Shown here in pieces: positions 1 through 50,549 of a stretch of 64,000 bases of DNA. Made by a program: the position numbers and the translations under genes. Below the pieces are notes generated by a model. The model was not told the origin of the DNA. It ran no database searches and saw nothing but the letters and a program-made list of their open reading frames with translations. Within the stretch, counting starts at the first letter, position 1, and every line of letters starts with the position of its first letter. The DNA lies in contig JAUQQM010000001.1 of assembly GCA_030549895.1 (NCBI GenBank), positions 44,091 to 108,090 of the forward strand, read 5' to 3'. Source of the stretch: Patescibacteria group bacterium (GTDB lineage: Bacteria; Patescibacteriota; Minisyncoccia; UBA6257; HR35).

Positions 1-82
1 TATGAAAAACTTAATTAATTTTTGGATCTTTATGATCTCTAAATGATTCATTAATATAAAAAAATTTAGGTATTTTTTATAA

Positions 83-386
83 TGTTCCTCGAGAAACATT
101 TTAAGGTATTTTCTAGAATGTTTCTCAAGAAACATTTATGGAAAATTTAATTAATTTCGTATATTTTAAGATATTTAGAAAGTATTTTAAAAAAACAGGA
201 TTATTTTTATAGTGTTCCTCGAGGAACATTTTTAGAGGAAATGTTCCTCGAGGAACATTTTTAAGAGGTAGTGTTTCTCGAGAAACACTTAGGTACTTGT
301 AGTGATGTTTCTCGAGGAACATCGGAGTATAGGCCGAATGTTTCTTGGGAAACACTTAAATACGGTGTGGTGTTTCTCAAGAAACA
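83..386. repeat. Tandem array of 8 copies of a 16-bp palindrome TGTTYCTCGAGRAACA. Cores start at 83, 119, 214, 243, 273, 306, 339 and 371; the last five are spaced 29-33 bp apart. It resembles parS (TGTTTCACGTGAAACA).
   Basis: Read directly. The extended copies are aATGTTYCTCGAGRAACAtt; centres are degenerate in copies 2, 7 and 8 (tcAaga, tTGgga). Confidence 0.85.
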
Positions 387-387
387 T

Positions 388-416
388 TGACAAAGATGAA
401 TTTTTGTGGTATAATA
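388..416 (+). promoter_or_regulatory. Near-consensus sigma70-type promoter: TTGACA, 17 bp, TATAAT. It sits immediately 3' of the last palindrome.
   Basis: ttgaca 388-393, 17-nt spacer, tataat 411-416. It points into the antisense of the downstream minus-strand gene. Confidence 0.5.
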
Positions 417-418
417 TG

Positions 419-1702
419 TTAATAACTTTTTGAGGTCTCTAATAAAACTCTTAAAGTATGAAAAATAATAATCAAATCTAAAAAGAGATTTTGATTTTTT
501 ATGTAAAAAAGATCATATTCTAGTTTTTTCTTTGTCCATTCTACTGATGGATATTTCCCTATATTTATTTGAGCCCAGCCGGTTAAGCCAGGTTTAACTA
601 AATGTCTTAAGGAATAATACGGTATTTTTTCTTTAAGTTCAGAGACGATTTTTACTTGCTCTGGTCTTGGGCCAACTAATGTTAAATCTCCTTTTAAAAT
701 ATTTATAGCTTGGGGGAGTTCATCAAGATGAAATTTTCTTAAAAATTTACCAAAAGGAAAGATAAGCCCCTCATCTTTTCCTATCCAAACATCCTTTTTT
801 TCTTGATGTAATGTTCTAAATTTTATAATTTCTATCTCTTTTTCACTCTTACCAACTCTTTTTTGTTTGAAAAATATTGGCCCTGGGCTAGAAAGTTTAA
901 TTCCTAAAGCAATAAAAGGAAAAGTTAAAATAAAAATAATCATCAATATAAAGCCAAAAATTAAATCTATTAGTCTTTTGAAAAAGTTATAAATCAATCT
1001 ATCTTTATTTGCTATATTCAAAATATCGATTTTTGAAAGATATTCTATTGGTAAAAACTCAAAAACATTCTCATAGAAATCTTTAATTGTTTTTACTTTT
1101 GTAATTTCTTCTTGATAGTTCTTTTCATCTATTATTTTTCTAACATCAAAATTTGGAGGGATAACAATAATTTTTGGTTCAGGAATTTCAGAAGCTTTTC
1201 CAAAAGACTTTATAAAAAAAACATTAAAACCAAGGTGCAAATTACGCTGAAGATCTTTTAAAAGTCTTTCAAAAATTTTCCTTTGCCCTAAAAGTAAAAG
1301 GTTTATCTTGGGTCTTTTAAAATAAAAGTAATTAGCAAATTTTCTTTTAAAGAAGGTATCAAAAATTAAAAAAAGGATCCAAAAAATTAAAAGATTTTTT
1401 TTTGGACTTATTTTACCCCCAAAAAGGTAAAAATAAATAAAAGAAAAAATAAAGGTTGTGATTATCGAGGTAAAGTTTTTTTTAAAAAATTCTTTTGCGC
1501 TTAGACTTTTATCTATTCTGTAAGATCTTATAAGGGTGCTAGTTAAGATGAAGAAAACAAAAATAGGTAAAAAATAATTAAAATGAATCTTAAACTGCTC
1601 TATATTGCCTTTAAACCTTAAAAATACAACTAAAAACAAAGAGAAAAAAAGTAAAAATATATCTCCTAAAATAAGAAAGAGTCTGTAAATTTTAAAATTC
1701 AT
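419..1702 (-). CDS. Polyprenyl-phosphate glycosyl-1-phosphate transferase (bacterial sugar transferase, WbaP/CpsE-like). Initiating enzyme for EPS/O-antigen synthesis.
   Basis: C-terminal domain KFRTL...DELPQ..NILKGDLTLVGPRPE is typical of the bacterial sugar transferase family. N-terminal TM helices. Confidence 0.8.
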   Translation of the reverse strand: MNFKIYRLFLILGDIFLLFFSLFLVVFLRFKGNIEQFKIHFNYFLPIFVFFILTSTLIRSYRIDKSLSAKEFFKKNFTSIITTFIFSFIYFYLFGGKISPKKNLLIFWILFLIFDTFFKRKFANYFYFKRPKINLLLLGQRKIFERLLKDLQRNLHLGFNVFFIKSFGKASEIPEPKIIVIPPNFDVRKIIDEKNYQEEITKVKTIKDFYENVFEFLPIEYLSKIDILNIANKDRLIYNFFKRLIDLIFGFILMIIFILTFPFIALGIKLSSPGPIFFKQKRVGKSEKEIEIIKFRTLHQEKKDVWIGKDEGLIFPFGKFLRKFHLDELPQAINILKGDLTLVGPRPEQVKIVSELKEKIPYYSLRHLVKPGLTGWAQINIGKYPSVEWTKKKLEYDLFYIKNQNLFLDLIIIFHTLRVLLETSKSY

Positions 1703-6808: not shown

Positions 6809-7483
6809 TTATTTTCTGAATTTTATTTCTTCTAAAAACTTTTTCGCTAAATCTTTACCACCTAAACCAAAAGCAAGGCCTCCAGCTAAAGCAAGCATAG
6901 CTACCATCCCTCCAATTATTATCTGAATTATATTTTGAGAAACACCAAGTTCATAAAAAGCTACTAAAAATCCAAAAACTACAATTGACCAGTAAATAAA
7001 GTTATAAATGACTTCACTTGACCAATGACCAGCACTCTTTATTGTTGCTTTGCCAAGTTTGCCCAAAACTTCACCTAAAAGTAAAGAAGCAACAAAAATA
7101 ACAAGAGCAACAACTACTTTTGGAATATAAAGAAATATTTCTTTAAGAAGATCTGTTGCTGCTTTAAGTCCTAAAGCATCAAAAGCAGCTAAAAAACCAA
7201 TTAAGATAAAAACCCAATAAACAATTGTTCCTAAAAATCTACCTGAGTTAAGAACATAACCAGCTCTTTCAAGATATCTCTCAAAGTTAAGCTTTCTTAA
7301 TGCTTCATCTATTTTCAAAAACTCAACAATTTTCCTTACAACCTCACCAACAGCATAACCAATTAAAATACTAATAAGAATAAAGACTATAGCTACAATA
7401 AGTCTTGGTAAAAAACCAAAAATACTATTCCAGACATTATAAAATGACTGGGTTATTAGATAGGCATAAGTTGTCTGGTCCAT
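6809..7483 (-). CDS. Membrane protein with repeated conserved TM helices (MscS-N-terminal / TM_helix-repeat-like)
   Basis: Five hydrophobic helices with recurring ...GxxxxxLxxxxxFLAAF... pattern. Family assignment tentative. Confidence 0.45.
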   Translation of the reverse strand: MDQTTYAYLITQSFYNVWNSIFGFLPRLIVAIVFILISILIGYAVGEVVRKIVEFLKIDEALRKLNFERYLERAGYVLNSGRFLGTIVYWVFILIGFLAAFDALGLKAATDLLKEIFLYIPKVVVALVIFVASLLLGEVLGKLGKATIKSAGHWSSEVIYNFIYWSIVVFGFLVAFYELGVSQNIIQIIIGGMVAMLALAGGLAFGLGGKDLAKKFLEEIKFRK

Positions 7484-7591
7484 GAAATTTAAGTCCGTCT
7501 TACTTTATTTAAAAGTTTGACGGACCTAAAAGAAATAATTTTAAAATTATAATTTAATATTAAAGAAAAATCAACTTAGTCTTAAGTTTTT

Positions 7592-7636
7592 TGTGGATAA
7601 AAACTCTTGACAAAAATAAAGCTTTAATAATATAAT
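7592..7636 (+). promoter_or_regulatory. Perfect DnaA box (TGTGGATAA, 7592-7600) immediately upstream of a sigma70-like promoter (TTGACA 7607-7612, 18 bp, TATAAT 7631-7636)
   Basis: Read directly. Confidence 0.5.
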
Positions 7637-7718
7637 TTTATATTATGGTTTATAGTTTGTTGAAGATTCAATTTGCTACTCTAAGGGGGGCTTAGGTTTT
7701 TTTAATTTTTTTAAAAAA

Positions 7719-7746
7719 ACCTAGGCCCCTAAAAGGGGCCTTTTTT
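7719..7746 (+). terminator. Intrinsic-terminator-like hairpin (GGCCCC-taaaa-GGGGCC plus a T6 run). It is preceded by a weaker hairpin (CTAAG-ggggg-CTTAG plus T7, 7681-7703) and ends 7 nt before the 7754 start codon.
   Basis: GC-rich 6-bp stem followed by tttttt. It lies about 85 nt downstream of the predicted -10. Confidence 0.55.
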
Positions 7747-7753
7747 AATTATT

Positions 7754-8356
7754 ATGGAAGAAGTAATTCTTAAAAAAACAATAGAGGTTTTCCAAGGAGC
7801 AAATTATAAAGAAGACTTTAATATTGAAAAACTAACAGAAGAAGATAAAGAATATTTTGGTTTTATTTTAAGTAATCTTGAAAACAAAAAATTAAAATTT
7901 TTAAACTCATCAGTCCAAAATTCAGATATCATAAAAGGAATAACGCTTAACTTAGGAGTTCATACTGTTTTTCATGAATATTTAGAAAAAAAACAAGATC
8001 CTCTTGAAGACGAATTTTCTAAAGTAACTTCACTTTTTATCCTTGAAAGTTCTCAAAATTTAAAAAAAGCCCTTGAAGAAAAAGAGATTAATCCAGAGAG
8101 TTTTCTAAAAAAAATAGCTTATGGATTCTTAGGAATTGTTTTAATTAGCTCCGACTTAAGACATGAAAGAGCAAAAATTGAAAGATCTATTACTTACCAG
8201 CTTTATTATGAATCAATTATTAAAAAATCCTTGTGGGGAATAGAAGTTGATGTGAAAGGATTTTATGAGGCTTTAAAAACATATAATTCTTTTTCAACTA
8301 AAAAAATAAAAAAACTGCTTAATGATGGTGGTTATTTTGTTTTAGAAAATATATAA
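7754..8356 (+). CDS. Hypothetical protein (200 aa)
   Basis: ORF only; no motif recognised. Its 3' end overlaps the convergent 8319..9065 gene by 38 nt. Confidence 0.45.
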   Translation: MEEVILKKTIEVFQGANYKEDFNIEKLTEEDKEYFGFILSNLENKKLKFLNSSVQNSDIIKGITLNLGVHTVFHEYLEKKQDPLEDEFSKVTSLFILESSQNLKKALEEKEINPESFLKKIAYGFLGIVLISSDLRHERAKIERSITYQLYYESIIKKSLWGIEVDVKGFYEALKTYNSFSTKKIKKLLNDGGYFVLENI

Positions 8357-9065
8357 AAACAAAAATACTCAAAATTAAAAGAAGTGGCCAAAAACTAAAA
8401 GATTTAGCCTCTAAAAAAGATGGGTAGTTTTTAAAATAAATATTTTCTTTACCTGGAGTAAGAAATTCGTTTTTTAAAAATTTCCCCTCAAAATTACTAT
8501 AACCAGCATAATAAGTACCTAAAAAGTAGTTATTAACAAAAACATCAAACTTTTCTCCTTCTAAATCTACAGTAAAAATTTCTTTTGGATTTATTTTTTT
8601 ATCTAAATTAATTTCTTTTTTATCTGATTTTATGTATATTTTCACCTCAGAAGAAAAATCTCCTAAAAATTTAAATTCTAACCAATTGTGGCCAATTTCG
8701 TTGACTGAAATCAACTTTTCTAAAATTGGCCATTCTTTCTGAGTAATCAAGTTATTATTTTCATCAAATATCTTAACTATTCCACCTGAATTTTTAAGAT
8801 AAAAACTAGATTCAACTAATTTTTTATCTTTAAATTGAGGAAAATTTTTTAAAAATTCATCTTTATTTTGAACTATGTAAACCTCTTCTTTTGGCCCTAT
8901 AATAACCGAACTTTTAAAATAATGATATTTGCCATCAAAAATTTTCCAACCTTTCTTTGACCCTTTTAAAAAATAAAACTTATCAGAAAAATTTTTCAAA
9001 ACTATCCATTCTTTATTTTTATCATTTCCTGGGGGATTAAAATTTATATCTATAATCTCTAACAT
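8319..9065 (-). CDS. LTD (lamin-tail-domain)-like protein with C-terminal TM anchor
   Basis: N-terminus LEIIDINFNPPGNDKNKEWIVLKN matches the LTD signature (NP.G.D...EWIEL.N). C-terminal hydrophobic helix. Confidence 0.5.
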   Translation of the reverse strand: MLEIIDINFNPPGNDKNKEWIVLKNFSDKFYFLKGSKKGWKIFDGKYHYFKSSVIIGPKEEVYIVQNKDEFLKNFPQFKDKKLVESSFYLKNSGGIVKIFDENNNLITQKEWPILEKLISVNEIGHNWLEFKFLGDFSSEVKIYIKSDKKEINLDKKINPKEIFTVDLEGEKFDVFVNNYFLGTYYAGYSNFEGKFLKNEFLTPGKENIYFKNYPSFLEAKSFSFWPLLLILSIFVFIYFLKQNNHHH

Positions 9066-12912: not shown

Positions 12913-13405
12913 AACTATACTTCAAAAATTCATAAAGTCCTATCAAAGTAAAAAATGTTAAAAATTTATCTAACCTTAAAAAATTAAAAACAAAAAAGGT
13001 CTGGCCTAAAATAAAAGAACTAAAAAGAAGGTTAAAGATTTTCTCTTTTTCGAGAATAAGAAAAATGAAAATAAAAATTAAAAACTCAACTAGATTTATA
13101 CCTGAAAAAGAAAGACCAAAAAAGGTGAAAATTTTTAATAGATCAAAATTCTGAGACCAATAAAAAATATGCAAAAGAAAGAAAAGAAAGCTTAAAATTA
13201 TCCCAAAAATTCCTTTTTCAAAGATAAAAATGAAAAGCAAATTTGAAAAAATGCTTTTTAAAATAAAGCTTATTTTGAAATTAAAATAAAAAGTACCTAC
13301 GAGGGTAAATAAAAAAACTAGAAAAGGAATTTTTTGAAAGTAATTAGCTAAAAGTAAAAATAAAAAAACCAGATCAAATATCAAGATTTTTGGCTTGAAT
13401 TGCAT
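12881..13405 (-). CDS. Polytopic hydrophobic membrane protein (174 aa), function unknown
   Basis: At least 5 TM helices. Overlaps gyrB 3' end by 32 nt and the ATP-cone gene 5' end by 32 nt. Confidence 0.45.
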   Translation of the reverse strand: MQFKPKILIFDLVFLFLLLANYFQKIPFLVFLFTLVGTFYFNFKISFILKSIFSNLLFIFIFEKGIFGIILSFLFFLLHIFYWSQNFDLLKIFTFFGLSFSGINLVEFLIFIFIFLILEKEKIFNLLFSSFILGQTFFVFNFLRLDKFLTFFTLIGLYEFLKYSYGKINLQTNK

Positions 13406-15266
13406 GTAATTCTATAAATTTCTTTCGAGGTTCAATTTCGTGACCCATTAAAATAGTAAAGTATTTCTCTGCTTCTTGAGCATCTTTTATGGTAGCTTTT
13501 TTAAGAATTCTTTTCTCAGGATTCATTGTTGTTTCCCAAAGTTCTTCAGGACTCATTTCTCCTAAACCTTTATATCTTTGAACCTCGAAGTTTTCTTTAA
13601 TTTCAGAAATTATTTTTTCTTTTTCTTCATCAGAATAAGCATATCTTACTTGGTTTTTAAATTTTATCTTATAAAGAGGAGGTTGGGCAATATAAATATG
13701 GCCAAACTCAATTAGTGGTCTTGTATATCTATAAAATAAAGTAAGAAGAAGAGTTTTAATATGATTTCCATCGATATCTGCATCAGTGGCAATTATAATT
13801 TTTGAATATCTTAAATTTTCTATCTTAAAATCTTTACCAAAACCTGTACCAAGAGCAATTATAAGATTTTTAATTTCTTCTGACTTTAAGATTTTATCTA
13901 AAGATGCTTTCTCGACATTTAAAATTTTTCCTCTTAAAGGAAGAACAGCTTGAAAGTGTCTGTCTCTTGCCTGTTTGGCTGAGCCACCAGCTGAATCACC
14001 TTCAACTATAAAAATTTCTCTTTCTTCTTTTTTTCTACTACTACAATCAGCTAACTTCCCTGGTAAGCCAAAACCTAAAATAGAACTTTTCTTTAAAACT
14101 GCTTCTCTAGCGCTTTTAGCTGCTATTCTTGCTTTTGCTGAAATTGAAATTTTATTTAAAATATACTTGGCATCAGTCTCATTTATTTCTAAAAATTCTT
14201 TAAATCTTTTATAAACAATACCCTCAACAATAGATCTTATCTCTGGGTTACCTAATTTTGACTTTGTCTGTCCTTCAAATTGAGGGTTAGGGATTTTAAC
14301 AGAAACAATTGCAATAATGCCTTCTCTTGTATCATCACCAGTGAAGTTTTCGTCTTTTTCTTTTAAAAATTTCTTTTCTCGAGCAAAATCATTTATAGCT
14401 TTAGTAAGGCCTGATCTAAAACCAGTAAGATGAGTTCCTCCTTCTTTATTTTTAATGTTGTTGGTAAAAGCTAGCTCAAGAGAGTCATTATCCTCTGTAT
14501 AAGCTAGAGCTAATTCAATAAAATTTTCGCCTTCTTTTTCGTTTACATAAAATACTTCTTTATGAATAGTTTTTTTAGAAAAAAGTAAATAATTTATAAA
14601 ACTTTTAATTCCATTTTCAAAATAAAAACAGTACTTCTTTAAATTTTTTCTTTCATCAAAAATGAAAAATCTTACACCTGGAGTCAAAAAAGCTTGCTCT
14701 CTAATATGAGAAATGATTCTTTCTAAATCAAATTCTATTTCTTTAAAAATTTTCTTGTCAGGTTTAAAAGTAACAACTGTTCCTGTTTTTTTTGTCTTTT
14801 CTAATTTTTTAACTGGACCAAGAGGTTTACCCTCTTTATATTGTTGAAACCAAACATAACCATCTCGATAAACCTTAGCTATTAAAGTCTCGGAAAGAGC
14901 ATTAACAACCGAAACTCCTACACCATGAAGTCCACCAGAAACTTTATAAACCTGATTAGAAAATTTTCCTCCAGCGTGAAGATAAGTCATAACAGTCTCT
15001 AGGGCTGTTTTTTTAGTTTTCTCATGAATATCAACTGGTATACCTCTACCATCATCTTCAACTTCAATGAAATTATCTGGTAAAAGTCTAATTTTTATGT
15101 TTTTTGCATAGCCAGCTAAAGCTTCATCTATAGAATTATCAACTACTTCCCAAATTAAATGGTGAAGCCCTTCAGGGCCAGTAGTTCCAATATACATTCC
15201 TGGTCTTTTTCTTACTGGCTCTAGACCTTCTAAAACCTCTATTTCTTTGGCAGTATATTCTGTCAT
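13374..15266 (-). CDS. gyrB: DNA gyrase subunit B (or topo IV ParE; type IIA topoisomerase ATPase subunit)
   Basis: GHKL ATPase EVVDNSIDEALAGY; TOPRIM EGDSAGGSAKQARDR; PLRGKILNVEKA. Confidence 0.9.
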   Translation of the reverse strand: MTEYTAKEIEVLEGLEPVRKRPGMYIGTTGPEGLHHLIWEVVDNSIDEALAGYAKNIKIRLLPDNFIEVEDDGRGIPVDIHEKTKKTALETVMTYLHAGGKFSNQVYKVSGGLHGVGVSVVNALSETLIAKVYRDGYVWFQQYKEGKPLGPVKKLEKTKKTGTVVTFKPDKKIFKEIEFDLERIISHIREQAFLTPGVRFFIFDERKNLKKYCFYFENGIKSFINYLLFSKKTIHKEVFYVNEKEGENFIELALAYTEDNDSLELAFTNNIKNKEGGTHLTGFRSGLTKAINDFAREKKFLKEKDENFTGDDTREGIIAIVSVKIPNPQFEGQTKSKLGNPEIRSIVEGIVYKRFKEFLEINETDAKYILNKISISAKARIAAKSAREAVLKKSSILGFGLPGKLADCSSRKKEEREIFIVEGDSAGGSAKQARDRHFQAVLPLRGKILNVEKASLDKILKSEEIKNLIIALGTGFGKDFKIENLRYSKIIIATDADIDGNHIKTLLLTLFYRYTRPLIEFGHIYIAQPPLYKIKFKNQVRYAYSDEEKEKIISEIKENFEVQRYKGLGEMSPEELWETTMNPEKRILKKATIKDAQEAEKYFTILMGHEIEPRKKFIELHAIQAKNLDI

Positions 15267-17247: not shown

Positions 17248-18618
17248 ATGGAGCGAGTTGATGAAAAATTACCCCAAGAAGAATTAGAAAAAATATGGAA
17301 AGAGGTTTTATCTGAGATAGAATTAGAAGTCTCTAAACCAGCTTTCAAGACATGGTTTACAAATACAACTTTAGTTGCTAAAAAAAATGAAAAATTAATA
17401 ATTGGAGTTCCTTCTAATTTTGTAAAAGAATGGCTTAAAAAAAGATTTTCAAATATTATTTTAAAACATCTTCGAAAGTTTTTCTCGGATATAAAAACTC
17501 TAGACTATACTGTAATTTCAAAACCAACAACCATAGAAACAATAACAAAAGATCAAATTCAATTTTCAACAAAATTAGAAATATTTCAAATTGATCCAAA
17601 AACAAATCTTAACAAAAAATATAAATTCTCAAATTTTGTTGTTGGTCCAAATAATGAGATAGCCTTTGCTGCAAGTCAGTCTGTTGTTCAGATGTTAGGA
17701 AAAAAATATAATCCCTTATTCATTTACGGTGGGGTTGGTTTAGGTAAGACTCATCTTCTTCAAGCTATAGGAAATGAAATTGTTGAAAAGTACAAAAACA
17801 TTAATGTAAAATATCTTACTTGTGATAAATTTGTTAGTGACCTAGTGAATTATATTAAAAATCAACAATTAGAAGAATTTAAAATTAAGTTTAAAAGTGT
17901 CGATGTTCTTTTAATTGATGATATTCATTTCCTTTCTCAAAAAGAAAGAGCTCAAATAGAACTTTTTCATATTTTTAATTTCCTTTATGAAAGAGAAAAA
18001 CAAATAGTATTTTCATCTGATAGACCCCCTTCGCTTATAAATGATATTGAAGAAAGACTAAGATCAAGATTTTCTGGAGGACTTATCGTTGATATTGAAC
18101 CACCTGATTATGAAACAAGAGTTGCAATTTTGAAAATGAAAATGGCCGAAAAAAATGGAAATTTACCAGATAAAATTCTCAGCATTATTGCTGAAAAAGT
18201 TCAAAAAAATGTAAGAGAACTTGAAGGAGTTTTAACTAAAGCTTTAATTTATTATTCAAAAAAACAAAATTTAACTTCAGAAGATTTAGAAAAAATTCTA
18301 AAAGACTATTATCAAGACAGTTATAGACTAGTTACGCCAACAAGAATAATTAATATTATTTCTTCTTTTTATGAAATAAATTCTAAATATCTTTTAGAAC
18401 CAACAAGGAAAAAAGAGTATGTAAAACCAAGGCAAATTTTAATGTATCTTTTAAGAGAGTTAACCAATCTTTCTTATCCAACAATTGGAGAAAAAGTTGG
18501 GGGAAGAGATCATACAACAGTCATGTACGCTTATGAGAAAATAAAAAAAGAAATTCAAAAAAACCAAGATCTAGCAAAAGAAATAGAAATATTAAAAGAA
18601 AGAATTTTAAGTAGTTAA
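17248..18618 (+). CDS. dnaA: Chromosomal replication initiator DnaA
   Basis: AAA+ Walker A GGVGLGKTHLL; C-terminal DNA-binding domain ...DHTTVMYAYEKI. Confidence 0.95.
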   Translation: MERVDEKLPQEELEKIWKEVLSEIELEVSKPAFKTWFTNTTLVAKKNEKLIIGVPSNFVKEWLKKRFSNIILKHLRKFFSDIKTLDYTVISKPTTIETITKDQIQFSTKLEIFQIDPKTNLNKKYKFSNFVVGPNNEIAFAASQSVVQMLGKKYNPLFIYGGVGLGKTHLLQAIGNEIVEKYKNINVKYLTCDKFVSDLVNYIKNQQLEEFKIKFKSVDVLLIDDIHFLSQKERAQIELFHIFNFLYEREKQIVFSSDRPPSLINDIEERLRSRFSGGLIVDIEPPDYETRVAILKMKMAEKNGNLPDKILSIIAEKVQKNVRELEGVLTKALIYYSKKQNLTSEDLEKILKDYYQDSYRLVTPTRIINIISSFYEINSKYLLEPTRKKEYVKPRQILMYLLRELTNLSYPTIGEKVGGRDHTTVMYAYEKIKKEIQKNQDLAKEIEILKERILSS

Positions 18619-30225: not shown

Positions 30226-32305
30226 GACTTAGCCTTCCTAGTTTGTCTTTTTCTTTAATTTTAACAGAAATTTTCTGCCCTAATTGAAGACCAAAATTCT
30301 TTTTGTTTTTCATCTCATTTTCCATATTTGAAATATGTAAAAGAGCATTAATTCCTCCCTCAAGTTCTACTAAAACACCAAAATCAAAGAATTTTATAAC
30401 TGTTCCTTGAGTAACATCACCAACATTGTATTCTCTAGGGGCAATAATTTTTTTAACCTTTTCCATTGCTTTTTGGAGATTTTCTTCATTTTCACAGATA
30501 ACATAAACATAGTTTTCTTCTGTGTCAATAAAAATTTCTGAATTAGTTTCTTGAGCTATTTGGTTGATAGTTCGACCGCCAGTTCCAATTAAAAGACCAA
30601 TTTTTTCTGGATCAATTTTAATTCTTTGAATTTTTGGAGCATGTTCAGATATTTTATTTGGCATGGATTTTACTGAATTCATTTTCTCTAAAATTTCTAA
30701 TCTTGCTTTTTTAGCTTTTTCTAAAGCATCTTTTAAAATTTCTAAAGTGATTCCTTTTATTTTTACATCCATTTGAAGAGCTGTAATTCCAGCATTAGTT
30801 CCAGCAACTTTAAAATCCATATCTCCATAATGATCTTCTATACCTTGAATATCAACTAGAGTAAGCCAATTATTTTTATTTTCTATATTTCCTTTACTTA
30901 TAAGCCCTATTGAAATTCCAGCAACATTTCTTTTTAAAGGTACACCAGCATCAAGTAAAGCTAACGAAGAAGCACAAACTGAAGCCATGGAGGTTGAACC
31001 ATTTGAAGAAAGTACTTCTGAGACAACCCTAATAGCATAAGGAAATGTTTCTAAATCTGGTACTAGAGGAAGAAGAGCTTTTTCGACAAGAGCGCTATGA
31101 CCTATTTCTCTTCTCATTGGTCCTTTTATTGAACCAACCTCTCCAGTACAGTAAGGAGGAAAATTATAGTGATGCATAAATCTTTTCCCACCGATAAATT
31201 CTATCTCTTTAACTAAAAGTTCTTGCTGAATTGAATCTAAAGTAACAAAAGACATAACTTTTGTAAGACCCCTTCCAAAATAAGCAGAACCATGAACACG
31301 TGGAATTACAGAAGTTTCAACTTCTATATTTCTTATTTGATTTAAATCCCTTCCATCAGGCCTTTTGCCTTTACTAAAAATATAATTTACAAATTCTTCT
31401 TTAATTTTTTCTTTAAATAAAAAATCAGCTAATGATTTTTCTTCTTCGCTTAATTCTTGGGCAAAACTTTTATCTAACTCATATTCACCTGGACTTTCTT
31501 TACCAAAATCTTTTTCTATTATTTTTAATGATCTGTTTACTATATCTTCTATTTTAAGAGGCACAGAAAAATTAAAAGAAATTTGCTGTTTTTTATTTAA
31601 GAATTCATATTCTGGTTTTGATTTTAGATCTTCTATTATCTCATTTTGAAAATCTATTAATTTTTTAATATTTTCATTAGCAATTTGGAAAGAGTCTATC
31701 AGATAACTTTCATCTATTTCTTTTGCTTTTAATTCAATCATATCTACTAAATTTCCATCACCAGCAAAGATAATTTCACCATCTAAACTGCTAGAAATAT
31801 CAAAAGATGGCTCAACTATTTTTTCTCCTTGTAAAATTCCAATTCTCACTCCCGCTAGAGGTCCGTCGAATGGTAAAGGTGAAAGGCAAAGAGCTAAGGA
31901 AGCCCCAAAAAGACCAAGTAAATCTGGATCATTTTTATAATCAAAGGAAAAGACAGTTACTGTTATGTGAGTTGGCCAGAAAAAGAATTTATCAAATCTT
32001 GGCCTTAAGCTTCTGTCAATCAATCTTGCATTTAAAATAGCACTTTCCGATGGCCTGCCTTCACGTCTTAAGAATTTACTTCCAAGAATTTTGCCAATGG
32101 AATAAAATTTTTCCTCATAATCAACTGTAAGGGGTAAAAAGCCTAAAAATTTATTTTCTTTTTTAACATTTAAAGTAACAAGAACAGTAGTATTTTCCTG
32201 CTGAATCCAAACAGAAGAAAGGGATCTTGCTACAAGAGGATTTATATAGACTTTAAGAGTTTTTCCATTAAAATTTAAATTGTAACTTTTACCTAAAATA
32301 CTCAT
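30212..32305 (-). CDS. pnp: Polyribonucleotide nucleotidyltransferase (PNPase)
   Basis: Two RNase PH domains, then KH (GPGGRTINQI-like: IGTGGRTINQI) and S1 domains. Confidence 0.9.
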   Translation of the reverse strand: MSILGKSYNLNFNGKTLKVYINPLVARSLSSVWIQQENTTVLVTLNVKKENKFLGFLPLTVDYEEKFYSIGKILGSKFLRREGRPSESAILNARLIDRSLRPRFDKFFFWPTHITVTVFSFDYKNDPDLLGLFGASLALCLSPLPFDGPLAGVRIGILQGEKIVEPSFDISSSLDGEIIFAGDGNLVDMIELKAKEIDESYLIDSFQIANENIKKLIDFQNEIIEDLKSKPEYEFLNKKQQISFNFSVPLKIEDIVNRSLKIIEKDFGKESPGEYELDKSFAQELSEEEKSLADFLFKEKIKEEFVNYIFSKGKRPDGRDLNQIRNIEVETSVIPRVHGSAYFGRGLTKVMSFVTLDSIQQELLVKEIEFIGGKRFMHHYNFPPYCTGEVGSIKGPMRREIGHSALVEKALLPLVPDLETFPYAIRVVSEVLSSNGSTSMASVCASSLALLDAGVPLKRNVAGISIGLISKGNIENKNNWLTLVDIQGIEDHYGDMDFKVAGTNAGITALQMDVKIKGITLEILKDALEKAKKARLEILEKMNSVKSMPNKISEHAPKIQRIKIDPEKIGLLIGTGGRTINQIAQETNSEIFIDTEENYVYVICENEENLQKAMEKVKKIIAPREYNVGDVTQGTVIKFFDFGVLVELEGGINALLHISNMENEMKNKKNFGLQLGQKISVKIKEKDKLGRLSLVLV

Positions 32306-45989: not shown

Positions 45990-48900
45990 ATGACAATAAA
46001 ATTATTTTTAATTTTATTGTCACCGATAATAATTTTAGGTAGTTTACTTTCTTATTCTCCTTATAATACTCATCAGGTTTTAACTGAACAAATAGCAGAA
46101 TTTTATAATCTAACTACTAATGAAAGAAGACTGACAGCTCAAGAAATTGAGTGGATGAAACAAGGAGCTGCTGATGAAGATTATCCACCAAGATGGTACA
46201 ATCATTTTTATAATCCTTTAACTGGTAAAGGTTGGACGGGTTCAAGATTAGGTAAACTTAATGCTCAACATGTTTTAAATAAATTGAAAGAATTAGGTTT
46301 AATGGTTTATGATCCAGTAAGTTCTATTGAGTGGGCAAAAAATCATTATTTTCAAGCAAGAGAAGATGATTATTGGACTTGGGATTTTGGTATAGCAAAA
46401 TATGGTGAAGGTGATTATGAAAAGGCATTCAAAACATTAGGACATATTTTGCATCTTTTAGAAGATCTAACTGTACCAGAACATGTAAGAGACGATGCTC
46501 ATCCAGATTTAGGAATTATTGGAGAGATATTTAAGAATCTTCAAGATGGTTCTCCTTATGAATCATGGGCTAAAGAATATACTCTTTCAAATTACAATAA
46601 AATTAATCTAGCTAAAGAGCTTTTTGAAAAAGGCCAAATTCCTTATGAAGTTAGTTCTCTTGAAGAAGCTTTTCATAATCTTGCTTTATTTGTAAATGCT
46701 AGCTTTTTCAGTCCTGATACAATAGGAGTTCCAGAATTTCCTGAACCAGATATAAATAAACTTGAGATAAATAAAGATCTTGTTTACTATAAAAATACAG
46801 TCGTGGCTAAACTTGAAAAAGAAGGGATAAAAGTGGTTAAAGAAATAGCTCCTTATATTTGGGAGAAAGTTACTCCAGAACTTTTAAAATATGGAGCAGG
46901 TTTAGTTAATTTGTTTTTGAAAGAAGCTGAAAATACAAAACAAGATGCTGATATTATGAGTTATTATATCTACAGAACTTCACTAACTCAAATGGGGGAA
47001 AGAATATTAAGTTGGAATATTTATCATACTTCACCTTTGATGCAAATTATAAGATTCACTAATTCAATAGATAAAGTAAAAGGTAAAATTACTCTTTCCT
47101 ATTATAGTTTGAAAGACAAATTTTTAAAGAAGACTAATGAAGTTAATGAGGATCAAATAAAAAGTGAAGAAATATCTCAAAAGGATGTAAGTTTATGGAA
47201 AAATCAAGTAATTGAAGATAGTAACCTTTCAGTTAAAGAAGAATCAAATAAAATTGAAGAAGAAAAAAGTTTTCAAAAAGAAGGAAAAGTTGCTGGATTA
47301 ATTTCAGAAGAGCCCAAAAAGATTCTTGAGGACAAAATTGAAATTTCTGAAAATAAAGTCACTGAAAATAAAATTTCTCAAAAAGACTCTAAAGTAAATA
47401 AAATAGAAACTTTAAAACCCTTACCAACATTAATTAAAAAACAAAAATCTGATGAAAAGCCTGAAGAAGATAAAGAAAATAAAAAATTACAAGACTCGAA
47501 CAAAAAAGACGCTCGTCAGCCGATTGTAATTGGTGGAGGTTATAGTTCAACTCAACAATCTGACTCTAGTAGTTCAAAATGCAAATTTGATAGTTCAGAG
47601 AAGTTTCCTAAAGTAATAATTAATGCAATAAAATTTGAAGGAGAAAATTCTAAAGATGAATTTATAGAACTTTATAATCCAAATAATTTTGAAGTTAATC
47701 TTTCTTGCTGGTCATTAGCGAAAAAGACAGCTGGAACTCAAAATACTGAATTTAGTCCTTTAGTTACAAAAAAAGAATTTAGTGGTAAGATTCCGCCTTA
47801 TAGTTTCTTTTTAATAGTTCATCCATCTTCATCTTTAAAAGAAAAAGACTTAGAGTATTCATCATTTTCTTATAGTATCTCTAAAAATAATGTTGTTGCT
47901 CTTTTAGATCCTAACAATCAGATTGTCGATCTTGTTGGTTTTGGTGACAATAAAGAGAAAATTAAGGATTTTGAAAAAGAACCATTTATTTTTCAAGACT
48001 TACCCACAGGGGCTTTTATAGAAAGAATTAATATGAAAGATTCAGATGACAATAGTCAAGATTTTCAAATAACAAAGCGATCTCCCTATAATTCAAAAAT
48101 TTCAAAAAGACCAAAAGAAAAAATTTACAAATTAAGCGAACTTGCAAGTTTGAGTCCAGATGATTTTCAAATTTTTCCTCAAAATAGAAAGCTTTTAATC
48201 TATGTTAAAGAACCATATTTTCCTGATGATCTTCAGCCAGTAAGTAATATTTTAATTTTTTCAACCTCAATTCAACCAGTCTCTCTTGAACTTACTTATA
48301 AAGGGAAAGAAAACACTTTTGTTTTAGATTTTTGCCAGGAAGGAAATTATGAGGCAGAACTTAAAATATATGATAGCGATAATGAACTTAACTTTGTAAG
48401 TTTTAAGACAAACTTTACTATAGAAAACTCAGCTTGCACCTTAGAGAGTTTCCCAAAAATTTTAATAAGCGAAGTTTTAATTGAAACAGAAACAAACTCT
48501 AAAGATGAATTTATAGAACTTTATAACCCTAATGACTTTGAAATTGATCTTTCAAATTATAAAATAGTAAAGAAAACATCAAGTGGCTCCCAGAAGACAA
48601 TACTTTCTTCAAATACTCAACCAAAACTTGAAGGTAAAATTCCACCTTATGGATACTTTTTAATTACTAATTCAAGCTCTACTTTTGTAGATATTGCTGA
48701 TTTAGTTTATCCTTATTCAAGTTCAAAAGCCTTAGCCGATAATAATACAATTTTAATTTTAGACTTAAATAATAAAGTTATTGATAAACTTGGTTGGGGC
48801 AGCGCAAAAGACTATGAGGGAAGTCCTTCTAATATTAAAGATGGTTATAGTCTAGAAAGAAAAGTTACCAAAGATTCAACTCCAGAAAGTTTAAGAAACT

Positions 48901-50549
48901 TCGAGGCTAATTTTGGAAATGCTTACGATACTGATAATAATTCTTTTGATTTTGTTCTTCAACCAAATCCAAAACCAGAAAACAAAAAAATTTCTAAACC
49001 ACTGCCAACAAGACCAACTGGTTTTAAAATTAAAACTTATTTTTCTGATCTAAATCTTGAGGGAAAATATTTGAGTTGGTATGAAAAAGTAAAAGAAGAA
49101 AATCAAATAATAGAGTTAATTTGGAATCAACCATTGATTAATGAATTTCAAGGTTACTCTTATAGAGTTGGATATAAATTTAATAATCAAGAGTCTTTAA
49201 ACTATCTTCAAGTTCAAGAGCCTATAAGAGATGATTTTTCTCTTGTTAGGATTCCTTTAAATGTCTGCCAACTAAGATCAGGACCTTATGAATTTTTTCT
49301 TGAGGTTTATAATGGCGAAGTCTCAAAAACTCTTGCCTCAACTACTTTTTTTAAAGATCCTTTTCTTTTTCCTTGTCCACCAAAAGCACCAGAAGTAAAG
49401 TTAGAGTTTGTAAATTTAAATAACGCTCAATTTCCTCCTCTTCCCGTATGGTACTCATCAAATTATTTTCTCAAACTCACTCTTAAAGATCCAGAAGATA
49501 CAGATTTTTTAGCTACACCTATATCTTGGCAGGAAATACCTCAATATAAAAGTTTTTATTTTATAAAAGTTGCTACTAGTCCAGAGCTTTTAAGTGATGA
49601 AAATTTTTTTAAAAGAAAAGATCTTTGGGGGATAGACTATGTAAGATCTGATAGTCCAAATAATCCTAGCAATCAAGCTTTAGAACCAGGGCAGAGAATA
49701 ATTTATATAGATCTTTTTGATTTTGAAAAAGGTAAAACCTACTATCTTGGTATTAAAGCATTCAGTGTTTATGATTTTCTTTACTATATGGAACAAGATA
49801 AACAAACTTTTAGGGATTATCCTTTAGAACCTTGTAAGGTAGGTAGCTTTCGGGCAAGATTTAAAGATGGCCTTATTAATATTACAAATAACTGCATCTT
49901 TACTCATTATAATGGATATTATAGTAATTTTTACGATCGAATAAGTTATCCCCAAAACACCGGAATTTGGCAAGATCCAAATTTTTATGATACCGAGAAT
50001 CATTTAGAACCAATACCTAATATTCCACCTTCAAATTGGCAAGAAGTACCCCTAGAAAAACATGTTCAAAATTATCCTCATCTTCTTTCTTCAACTACGA
50101 TTGTTACTTTTACAGTTCCAGAAGATCTACCGATTCCTGATTCTTCAAGATTTTTTAAGTATGCAAAATTTTTTCAAGAAGATGGCTCTATTTATTTTGA
50201 ATTTACTCCAAGAAACAGAATTCCTCAAGTCTGGCGAATTATGGTCTCGCTTAAGACAGTAAAAGATAACACTTTCACCCCAAATATTCCTGGAGAAGAA
50301 AATTTTTATAATATGGTAACTCCTATTTTTACAATTTTTAGCGGTCCAGTAAGAGATTTTCCTTCTAAAGATCAAGATGGAAATGATCTTGTCTATAAAT
50401 TTAAAGTTTTAGATATTCCTCAAGATTATATTTTTGACGAAAATGATATCTTTTCTCTTGTTTTAGAATATTCCCCATATGGATATCCACGACCAAGTCT
50501 TCATTTTGATGATTTTAAATATAAATTTAACAACGAATACAGAGAATAA
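45990..50549 (+). CDS. Giant (1519 aa) secreted/surface protein: N-terminal Zn-dependent phospholipase C / nuclease-P1-like domain, K/E-rich linker, two lamin-tail (LTD) domains, C-terminal beta-rich region
   Basis: WYNHFYNPLTGKG and LGHILHLLEDLTVPEHV match PLC zinc motifs (HFYDP; LGxSLHYLGDxNQPMHA). Two copies of ...NSKDEFIELYNPN.FE..LS...KIPPY..FLI. Confidence 0.6.
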   Translation: MTIKLFLILLSPIIILGSLLSYSPYNTHQVLTEQIAEFYNLTTNERRLTAQEIEWMKQGAADEDYPPRWYNHFYNPLTGKGWTGSRLGKLNAQHVLNKLKELGLMVYDPVSSIEWAKNHYFQAREDDYWTWDFGIAKYGEGDYEKAFKTLGHILHLLEDLTVPEHVRDDAHPDLGIIGEIFKNLQDGSPYESWAKEYTLSNYNKINLAKELFEKGQIPYEVSSLEEAFHNLALFVNASFFSPDTIGVPEFPEPDINKLEINKDLVYYKNTVVAKLEKEGIKVVKEIAPYIWEKVTPELLKYGAGLVNLFLKEAENTKQDADIMSYYIYRTSLTQMGERILSWNIYHTSPLMQIIRFTNSIDKVKGKITLSYYSLKDKFLKKTNEVNEDQIKSEEISQKDVSLWKNQVIEDSNLSVKEESNKIEEEKSFQKEGKVAGLISEEPKKILEDKIEISENKVTENKISQKDSKVNKIETLKPLPTLIKKQKSDEKPEEDKENKKLQDSNKKDARQPIVIGGGYSSTQQSDSSSSKCKFDSSEKFPKVIINAIKFEGENSKDEFIELYNPNNFEVNLSCWSLAKKTAGTQNTEFSPLVTKKEFSGKIPPYSFFLIVHPSSSLKEKDLEYSSFSYSISKNNVVALLDPNNQIVDLVGFGDNKEKIKDFEKEPFIFQDLPTGAFIERINMKDSDDNSQDFQITKRSPYNSKISKRPKEKIYKLSELASLSPDDFQIFPQNRKLLIYVKEPYFPDDLQPVSNILIFSTSIQPVSLELTYKGKENTFVLDFCQEGNYEAELKIYDSDNELNFVSFKTNFTIENSACTLESFPKILISEVLIETETNSKDEFIELYNPNDFEIDLSNYKIVKKTSSGSQKTILSSNTQPKLEGKIPPYGYFLITNSSSTFVDIADLVYPYSSSKALADNNTILILDLNNKVIDKLGWGSAKDYEGSPSNIKDGYSLERKVTKDSTPESLRNFEANFGNAYDTDNNSFDFVLQPNPKPENKKISKPLPTRPTGFKIKTYFSDLNLEGKYLSWYEKVKEENQIIELIWNQPLINEFQGYSYRVGYKFNNQESLNYLQVQEPIRDDFSLVRIPLNVCQLRSGPYEFFLEVYNGEVSKTLASTTFFKDPFLFPCPPKAPEVKLEFVNLNNAQFPPLPVWYSSNYFLKLTLKDPEDTDFLATPISWQEIPQYKSFYFIKVATSPELLSDENFFKRKDLWGIDYVRSDSPNNPSNQALEPGQRIIYIDLFDFEKGKTYYLGIKAFSVYDFLYYMEQDKQTFRDYPLEPCKVGSFRARFKDGLINITNNCIFTHYNGYYSNFYDRISYPQNTGIWQDPNFYDTENHLEPIPNIPPSNWQEVPLEKHVQNYPHLLSSTTIVTFTVPEDLPIPDSSRFFKYAKFFQEDGSIYFEFTPRNRIPQVWRIMVSLKTVKDNTFTPNIPGEENFYNMVTPIFTIFSGPVRDFPSKDQDGNDLVYKFKVLDIPQDYIFDENDIFSLVLEYSPYGYPRPSLHFDDFKYKFNNEYRE

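Follow-up and report, generated by a model that had tools for sequence, protein, structure and literature searches.

A tandem array of parS-like palindromes near dnaA as a candidate chromosomal centromere in a Minisyncoccia lineage

The stretch of DNA analysed here, which we call the window, is 64 kb long and has a GC content of 27.7%. Its genes, as assigned by Pfam, include LeuRS, ValRS, an XerD-like recombinase, L13/S9, FtsW, gyrB, dnaA, dnaN, a PBP, PilB, a glycosyltransferase cluster and PNPase. The dnaA gene occupies positions 17248-18618, with dnaN behind it and gyrB (13374-15266) ahead of it. The closest named relatives of the DnaA and LeuRS proteins are found in MAGs of Minisyncoccia, Parcubacteria, Paceibacterota and Patescibacteria. 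The window shows no enrichment of DnaA boxes, and its GC skew is uninformative for oriC; as neither of them maps the origin, we place the region near it on the basis of dnaA-dnaN-gyrB synteny. To judge by its genes, the window is an ordinary chromosomal region of the origin type.

At one end of the window, next to a sugar-transferase gene, lies an array of 16-bp palindromes (Table 1). Eight of them match TGTTYCTCGAGRAACA with at most two mismatches, five exactly, against an expectation of 0.05 from dinucleotide shuffles of the 64-kb window; in 100 shuffles the count never reached nine. The eight copies that an earlier note on this DNA had placed at 83-416 are thus well beyond chance. The sole further match in the window is a two-mismatch site at 30401, within the PNPase gene. 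The coordinates of dnaA confirm that the array lies about 17 kb from this gene, and the clustering of the sites in its vicinity, also claimed in the earlier note, is equally clear, as the array is the only cluster in the ~74 kb formed by the window and its flanks.

Table 1. Features of the palindrome array and its immediate surroundings (window coordinates).
Feature	Position	Strand	Remarks
Array portion inside the window	1..386	.	continues ~52 bp upstream of position 1 (L001)
21-nt direct repeat TATGRAAAAYTTAATTAATTT, copy 1	1..21	+	second copy at 137..157
Palindrome TGTTCCTCGAGAAACA	83..98	.	exact match
Palindrome TGTTTCTCAAGAAACA	119..134	.	centre TCAA; at most 2 mismatches
21-nt direct repeat TATGRAAAAYTTAATTAATTT, copy 2	137..157	+	in long spacer
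Palindrome TGTTCCTCGAGGAACA	213..228	.	exact match; 16-mer also between parA and parB in L168
Palindrome TGTTCCTCGAGGAACA	242..257	.	exact match
Palindrome TGTTTCTCGAGAAACA	272..287	.	exact match
Palindrome TGTTTCTCGAGGAACA	306..321	.	exact match; half-sites unlike at the Y/R position
Degenerate palindrome TGTTTCTTGGGAAACA	339..354	.	2 mismatches
Palindrome TGTTTCTCAAGAAACA	371..386	.	directly adjoins the -35 hexamer
Sigma-70-type promoter TTGACA-17-(TG)TATAAT	387..415	+	12/12 consensus; TG extended -10
Sugar-transferase gene, Bac_transf (PF02397)	419..1702	-	Pfam; stop codon 3 nt from the -10 box
Predicted antisense transcript, start	422..500	+	complementary to the last ~26 sugar-transferase codons

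The array does not stop at the window edge, as the earlier note had suspected. L001 and L002, two Logan contigs with the adjoining sugar-transferase gene, both reach beyond the window start and add two palindromes upstream of it, at 2656-2671 and 2691-2706 of L001 (the L001 coordinate equals 2654 minus the window coordinate). The full array comprises ten TGTTYCTYRAGRAACA sites over ~440 bp. The palindromes follow each other at a regular pitch of 29-36 bp, and the spacers between them are variable (13-89 bp). The 21-nt direct repeat marks a higher-order duplication of ~136 bp, made of two palindromes and a long spacer.

The sugar-transferase gene is transcribed toward the array, and the promoter that begins directly after the last palindrome is directed outwards and reads into the 3' end of this convergent gene. 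On the far side of the array, L001 and L002 carry three tandem TTGACT-17-TATAxT promoters, a tRNA-Thr(CGT) gene and then a cluster of genes for unknown proteins, which in relatives runs on into TraC-like and VirB4-like genes (hereafter the T4SS-like cluster).

The palindrome closely resembles the ParB-binding site parS (TGTTTCACGTGAAACA, consensus TGTTNCACGTGAAACA). Alignment gives 14 identities over 16 positions, the very figure put forward in the earlier note, and the two mismatches fall at the symmetric positions 7 and 10, where A is replaced by T and T by A. The parS centre TGTTTCaCGtGAAACA is TGTTTCtCGaGAAACA here: the centre differs from that of parS, as had been noticed, but only two of its four bases are changed, and not all four, the central CG being retained. 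By simple arithmetic, a random 16-bp palindrome would match a given half-site at seven or more of its eight positions with p ~4e-4. Motif position 7/10 corresponds to 'position 6' in the numbering of Jalal et al., and it is this position that also separates parS from the Noc-binding site, NBS (PMC7383237). The two sites differ at positions 1 and 6; position 1 is read by R173 or Q173, position 6 by residue 201, a Gly in ParB and an Arg in Noc, and a Lys at 179 or 184 is permissive (PMC7383237). The array site, with G1 and T6, differs from parS at the specificity position alone, and reads as a parS variant in which base 7 of each half-site (position 6) is T, not A. With the parS sites bound by ParB (Spo0J) it otherwise shares the 16-bp palindromic form, identical arms, the central CG and the tolerance of Y/R at 5/12.

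The array is found at the same locus in five lineages (L001, L202, L286, L288 and L289), with 3-10 copies and a LeuRS identity of 76-99%. L202, at 99% LeuRS identity, is ~90% identical over the aligned intergenic region and has nine copies, its array being that of the window minus one 32-bp unit. In L286, L288 and L289 (76-79% LeuRS identity; five, three and nine copies, respectively, at a pitch of 36-105 bp) the order LeuRS, Bac_transf, array, tRNA-Thr, T4SS-like cluster is kept. Each orthologous locus of 17-22 kb holds a single cluster. Relatives further off, with a LeuRS identity of 60-63%, lack the array and have a rearranged locus, and for this reason no deep footprint could be obtained.

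Between L001 and L202, the palindromes have diverged by 7.7% and the spacers by 17.9% (Fisher p = 0.005), and seven of the eleven palindrome changes are at the degenerate Y/R positions. Over the 36 sites of the five lineages the consensus extends to A-R-TGTTYCTYRAGRAACA-Y-T. A10 has no exception and T7 a single one (35/36); TCGA and TTGA are each the centre of 14 sites and TCAA of 8, and TTAA does not occur. The half-sites vary independently, and the would-be stem pairs 5/12 (C.A in 3/36) and 0/17 (A.C in 11/36) do not covary, which fits recognition by a symmetric protein dimer rather than an RNA stem. The array is real, conserved and selected. Palindromes that diverge more slowly than their spacers and lack RNA-type covariation are the signature that a symmetric protein-binding site under selection would leave, with the array turning over by duplication and loss of units, and not that of an RNA stem or of a repeat in decay.

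An activity at the RNA level would make the palindromes hairpins in LeuRS/sugar-transferase read-through transcripts or in tRNA precursors, where they could act as terminators, processing signals or stabilisers. Indeed, the array follows the sugar-transferase gene in the direction of its transcription, and this gene has no other terminator; T-rich runs follow some of the copies, terminator-like sites are flagged at 213-257, and in three low-GC, CPR-like contigs (L172, L175 and L262) a palindrome pair sits inside the leader of tRNA-Ala(GGC). However, the mismatched pairs just described come without compensatory covariation, the stems are AT-rich and span just 6-8 bp, and positions 7 and 10, which would belong to the loop, are invariant or nearly so. 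Moreover, the exact sequence is conserved on both strands, as for DNA recognition, and Rfam, by gathering and E-value thresholds, identified tRNAs and otherwise only sub-threshold matches (miRNA-hairpin noise). An intrinsic terminator or structured RNA was rejected on the mismatched stem pairs, the invariant loop and the lack of any Rfam family above threshold, and we hold an RNA-level role to be very unlikely.

The regular pitch with variable 'spacers' also recalls guide-RNA-type or selfish repeats, be they TIGR-like, CRISPR-like or the remnant of a MITE or tandem duplication without host function, and TIGR systems do exist in CPR bacteria, sometimes operonised with parB-like genes (PMC12045711). 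In TIGR arrays two repeats of 8-12 nt alternate, separated by 9-nt spacers in a unit of 36 nt, and a gene for Tas, a Nop-domain protein, adjoins them (PMC12045711), whereas we find one palindrome of 16-20 bp, spacers of the wrong length and neighbours without Nop or Cas domain; a TIGR array was rejected for these reasons. Against a CRISPR array stand the repeat length (16-20 bp vs 24-48), the spacers, which are interrelated and orthologous where a CRISPR array would have unique ones of a size similar to the repeat, and the lack of cas genes. A MITE was also rejected, the anatomy being different, the locus single and the spacers orthologous between relatives, merely diverged. With one locus per genome sample, single sites only on viral contigs and palindromes under purifying selection, a guide-type or selfish repeat is extremely unlikely.

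Both edges of the array carry promoters that point outwards. A 12/12 TTGACA-16/17-TATAAT promoter stands at the sugar-transferase edge in all five lineages, directed away from the array and antisense to the gene, and an 11/12 TTGACT-17-TATAAT promoter drives toward tRNA-Thr, in the opposite direction, again in five out of five. The gap between the first palindrome and the -35 hexamer is 0-1 nt in four of the five lineages and 16 nt in L286; the abutment of the final palindrome on the -35 of a perfect promoter, which the earlier note had pointed out, is therefore also a property of relatives. The hairpin and T-run at ~470-500 are not kept in relatives, nor is any other structure or terminator of the predicted antisense transcript conserved (the covariation term of RNAalifold is unfavourable), which suggests that promoter activity, and not the RNA product, is the conserved feature of the antisense promoter. 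From this arrangement we infer that the array occupies a transcription-free pocket between divergent promoters. A protein bound to it may modulate the flanking promoters, and repression of the promoter at 387-415 is plausible, as judged from geometry alone.

Such a geometry is also what would be seen in an operator array for a transcription factor, perhaps a ParB-fold protein similar to KorB, that represses or activates the promoter at 387-415 and those of tRNA-Thr and the T4SS-like operon. KorB belongs to the ParB family and regulates neighbouring promoters as well. Apart from the 0-1 nt spacing to a 12/12 promoter in four lineages and the divergent consensus promoters that bracket the array in all five, the motif keeps similar company elsewhere: in four low-GC, CPR-like contigs, L176 and the three with a tRNA-Ala leader, the palindrome pair follows a TTGACx-17-TAT promoter at a distance of 25-60 nt, the classical roadblock position. 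An operator more typically keeps such company with promoters, and among the matches listed none of 120 canonical parS arrays has a tRNA within 300 bp. However, 3-10 sites over 100-440 bp are far above what promoter control needs, the copy number is freely variable among close relatives, and L286 illustrates that the distance from the -35 can change. Furthermore, the palindrome is missing from the remaining seven tRNA genes and from every other promoter of the 64 kb, and the likeness to parS, together with the parAB neighbourhood of the same motif in other genomes (see below), would have to be a coincidence. We regard the operator as unlikely, and it is the promoter and tRNA company of the motif, here and in the CPR-like contigs, that keeps the transcription-factor reading alive.

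Tandem parS sites are by no means restricted to plasmids. We scanned genomes for two adjacent TGTTYC-N4-GRAACA sites, all counts being among the matches listed. Canonical ACGT centres made up most of these matches (Streptomyces, Collinsella, Clostridia, Bacteroidota, Acidobacteriota, Proteobacteria and others), and at least 45 loci had three or more adjacent sites. A Bacilli MAG (L122) has ten sites in 2 kb and a Parcubacteria MAG (L128) ten perfect canonical parS in 800 bp; on the evidence of this assembly, dense parS arrays demonstrably exist in CPR genomes. Viral contigs gave 39 single variant sites, at chance level, and no array. The suggestion that eight tandem sites are more plasmid- or phage-like did not survive this comparison: chromosomal pairs, triplets and ten-copy arrays are common, and since tandem canonical arrays stand on chromosomal contigs and viral contigs have single sites only, the inference is unsupported. 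Tandem iteration of palindromes is shared with sopC of F, but in contrast to the plasmid centromeres and repressors (F sopC, P1 parS, RK2 KorB/OB) the array is embedded in a housekeeping chromosomal context, its motif is unrelated to sopC or OB, it has no adjacent partition genes, and it is without counterpart on viral contigs. Its position in the origin region and the clustering of several sites are those of canonical parS, which comes as pairs to 10-mers in many chromosomes. It departs from canonical parS in having T/A for A/T at 7/10, in its ten copies at a 29-36-bp pitch, which put it at the dense end, and in its surroundings, as it is not beside parAB and is bracketed by divergent promoters and a tRNA, unlike the 120 canonical arrays listed.

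Arrays with T at position 6 (T6 arrays) do occur next to partition genes in other bacteria. In a scan of metagenome contigs for two adjacent TGTTYC-TNNA-GRAACA sites (counts again among the matches listed), at least ~20 high-GC contigs had 3-6 TGCA-centred sites ~150 bp upstream of parA-parB. In L168, three TGTTCCTCGAGGAACA sites lie between parA and parB, and in L216 five TGTTCCTTGAGGAACA sites lie just upstream of parA. The 16-mers of these two contigs are identical to those of the window, and they are the sole full 16-mer matches among the matches listed. Their tandem occurrence beside parA/parB speaks for the interpretation of the palindromes as ParB sites, which was that of the earlier note. 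The Acidobacteriota-like T6 arrays (TGTTYC-TGCA/TCGA/TTGA-GRAACA) have the same arms and the same T/A at 7/10 as ours, a resemblance which for the arms is partly by construction, since these were fixed by the search pattern. They differ in that they come from high-GC genomes, stand at the parAB promoter or between parA and parB, and are accompanied by a ParB with Ser or Ala at 201. Among the matches listed, centres of the classes TATA, TCCA, TAAA and TACA were present as well. In the literature searched we found no description of T6-type arrays upstream of parAB and nothing on CPR ParB or non-canonical parS; for the variant sequences, shRNA loop constructs were the only hits.

We aligned the ParBs encoded at the loci of the listed matches to Caulobacter ParB numbering. 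Among those adjoining arrays with A at position 6 (A6 arrays), 36 of 40 have Gly201 (the exceptions are Ser201 in three and Ala201 in one), whereas among the 17 adjoining T6 arrays one has Gly201, eleven have Ala and five Ser. The association of residue 201 with the array type gives a Fisher p = 1.3e-9, a statistic which ignores shared ancestry. ParBs of T6 arrays typically have Tyr179, Lys184 and Phe200. With its Ser201, the L168 ParB shares 60-62% identity with the Gly201 ParBs of Terriglobus and further Acidobacteriaceae but only ~45% with the TGCA clade; as its nearest relatives are canonical Gly201 ParBs, at least two independent switches to T6 are implied. On these alignments, residue 201 is an imperfect predictor of the position-6 base.

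NBS sites, a system of Bacillota, lie scattered along the chromosome and serve to tether its DNA to the membrane. The array, by contrast, is one cluster, and the Noc-family role that had been entertained for it is not borne out. It matches NBS (TATTTCCCGGGAAATA) at 12 of 16 positions, and NBS has A at position 1 and C at position 6. An NBS identity was rejected on the 12/16 match, the single cluster and the lack of any ParB-family gene in the ~74 kb reached, the marks of an NBS system including a Noc with Q173, K179/184 and R201. What the array has in common with Noc/NBS is a natural change of ParB-family specificity at position 6, the base read by residue 201 (PMC7383237).

A search with motif regexes and a ParB HMM (built from 56 ParBs), with E up to 10, detected no ParB or ParA in the 64-kb window, in 4.5 kb upstream, in 5.4 kb downstream or in ~150 kb of the clade, a result that counts against a ParB reading. 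SMC, Nop and Cas domains were likewise absent from the window, these flanks and the ~150-kb clade sample, and parAB was not found around dnaA of relatives. A homologue search with the DNA-binding domain of the L168 protein, which reaches near neighbours alone, returned high-GC ParB fragments only.

All evidence considered, we think it probable that the array is a chromosomal centromere, that is a candidate ParB loading site, of a Minisyncoccia (Patescibacteria/CPR) lineage, built of a natural parS variant. This reading is favoured because the motif matches parS at 14/16 and differs at the specificity position only, because identical 16-mers stand beside parA/parB in L168 and L216, and because residue 201 covaries with the position-6 base. 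It further draws on the frequency of tandem canonical parS on chromosomes, including that of the Parcubacteria MAG L128, on the retention of the locus in five lineages, with palindromes slower than spacers and half-sites independent, and on the position of the array. As is typical of parS, the copies are clustered and origin-proximal, in one cluster ~17 kb from dnaA/dnaN/gyrB, and, the lone PNPase match aside, no other site occurs in ~74 kb.

We infer the identity of the binding protein and every step after binding from the sequence of the array, its conservation, its pattern of selection and its context. In the mechanism that we propose, ParB-family dimers would recognise each 16-20-bp palindrome, A-R-TGTTYCTYRAGRAACA-Y-T, and the 3-10 adjacent sites would lead to a high local loading of ParB clamps near the origin region, which would serve segregation and/or SMC loading. 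The outward promoters between which the array sits, antisense at the sugar-transferase side and tRNA-Thr at the other, could keep transcription out of the array, or be modulated by the bound protein, or both. The copy number would turn over by tandem duplication and deletion, with the binding sequence held constant.

A more speculative extension, which we advance tentatively and consider rather doubtful, is that T6 constitutes a third natural specificity class beside parS (A6) and NBS (C6), read by Ser/Ala201, which would have arisen at least twice in Acidobacteriota-like lineages and whose DNA variant would also be present in CPR. In Minisyncoccia it would form a fast-turnover centromere of 3-10 copies between outward promoters, where the bound ParB-family protein would double as a KorB-like regulator or insulator on the chromosome, possibly with no adjacent ParA/ParB operon.

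To our knowledge, parS has been treated as nearly invariant across bacteria, and the evolution of DNA-binding specificity in the ParB family has its textbook case in the switch from parS to NBS. The array suggests that a natural variant of the parS code has gone undescribed, and ParB/parS recognition may be less uniform than assumed. If true, the natural T6 variant would provide an independent, ready-made test of the model in which residue 201 reads position 6, as it is present in two very different phyla and, where a ParB is visible, residue 201 is changed to match. Searches for origins or centromeres with the canonical parS consensus could then miss whole lineages. As far as we know, the chromosome biology of CPR bacteria is essentially unstudied, and our reading, if correct, would pin down a probable centromere in one of them, with a conserved promoter-centromere-promoter architecture. 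The natural T6-class parS arrays with a changed residue 201, a broader outcome of the analysis, are the more interesting lead.

Finally, the centre of the palindrome, CTYRAG, is a SmlI site, and its CTCGAG form a XhoI site; a restriction-site reading was set aside because conservation spans all 16-20 bp.

Since a gap of only 12 nt separates tRNA-Thr(CGT) from the first gene of the T4SS-like cluster in L001, the contig extending past the window start, the tRNA and the operon may be co-transcribed; tandem TTGACT-17-TATAxT promoters precede the tRNA. The cluster encodes large proteins and is conserved in L286 and L288, relatives that keep the array at the same locus. At its end lie genes that are TraC-like, VirB4-like (DUF87/TraG P-loop) and, weakly, TrbL/VirB6-like, and in the distant relatives L291-L293 the same cluster adjoins LeuRS or dnaA. 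The cluster has the look of a type-IV-secretion-like apparatus belonging to the CPR core, not of an integrated element.

Within the array itself, both long spacers carry a 21-nt direct repeat with the palindrome TTAATTAA (window 1-21 and 137-157). This repeat is a candidate second protein site, or it may be a mere trace of the 136-bp duplication. The central hexamer CTYRAG is found in 36 of the 36 sites compared across the five lineages carrying the array; enzymes of the SmlI type recognise this hexamer, and XhoI recognises CTCGAG. The isolated copy inside the PNPase gene probably arose by chance, because shuffles reached at most one match.

Related palindromes recur in several other settings. 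Among the matches listed, tandem arrays of TGTTYC-N4-GRAACA also occur with other centres, namely TATA (11 copies), TCCA (7), TAAA and TTTA, and pairs centred on TACA/TGTA come from gut metagenomes. No ParB gene was found near the other-centre arrays within the fetched DNA of those contigs; the arrays may represent additional classes of parS specificity. On contig L268 (40% GC), TGTTTCTCGAGAAACA is repeated four times with a period of exactly 34 bp (1741-1858), and long ORFs traverse the repeats on both strands. Pairs of TGTTCCTYRAGGAACA occur on other low-GC contigs. Three of these pairs (L172, L175 and L262) are flanked by a consensus promoter and tRNA-Ala(GGC), with tRNA-Arg(CCT) upstream and a bactofilin-like gene close by, the exception being L176, in which an ORF follows the pair instead.

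The canonical parS array of L128 is laid out as three triplet modules of about 130 bp plus one additional site, all within an unbroken membrane-protein ORF of 364 aa (6840-7934, minus strand), whose putative product looked O-antigen-ligase-like. This layout would fit the in-frame insertion of a parS cassette followed by its amplification.

Four ParB paralogues carry Noc-type residues at the specificity positions (Caulobacter ParB numbering), and a normal ParB adjoins three of them. As the labels of their contigs include one Bifidobacteriaceae and one Limnochordales, Noc-like proteins may also exist outside the classical Bacillota. Finally, lamin-tail-domain proteins, which are probably common in CPR genomes, are also encoded in the window.

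Coordinates of the features discussed, in the window or on fetched contigs
Feature	Location	Remarks
Isolated 2-mismatch copy, TGTTCCTTGAGTAACA	window 30401-30416	within PNPase gene
Lamin-tail-domain protein, 1519 aa	window 45990-50549	
Lamin-tail-domain protein, 248 aa	window 8319-9065	
Near-consensus promoters TTGACT-17-TATAxT, two or three in tandem	L001 2756-2868	ahead of the window start; on the minus strand (window terms)
Conserved cluster, large unannotated proteins	L001 2962-7145; L286 14175-22415; L288 14001-22397	
Other-centre arrays	L183 5160-5774; L248 1494-2034; L234, L245, L169; L270; L162, L165, L225 and others	
TGTTCCTYRAGGAACA pairs	L172 648-701; L175 1042-1097; L262 10993-11037; L176 702-745	low-GC contigs
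Canonical parS array, ten perfect sites	L128 7008-7813	Parcubacteria MAG JBAYWF010000010.1
ParB paralogues, Noc-type	L051 3252-4109; L146 1-819; L161 6523-7848; L106 6650-7507	Q173, K179, R184, R201
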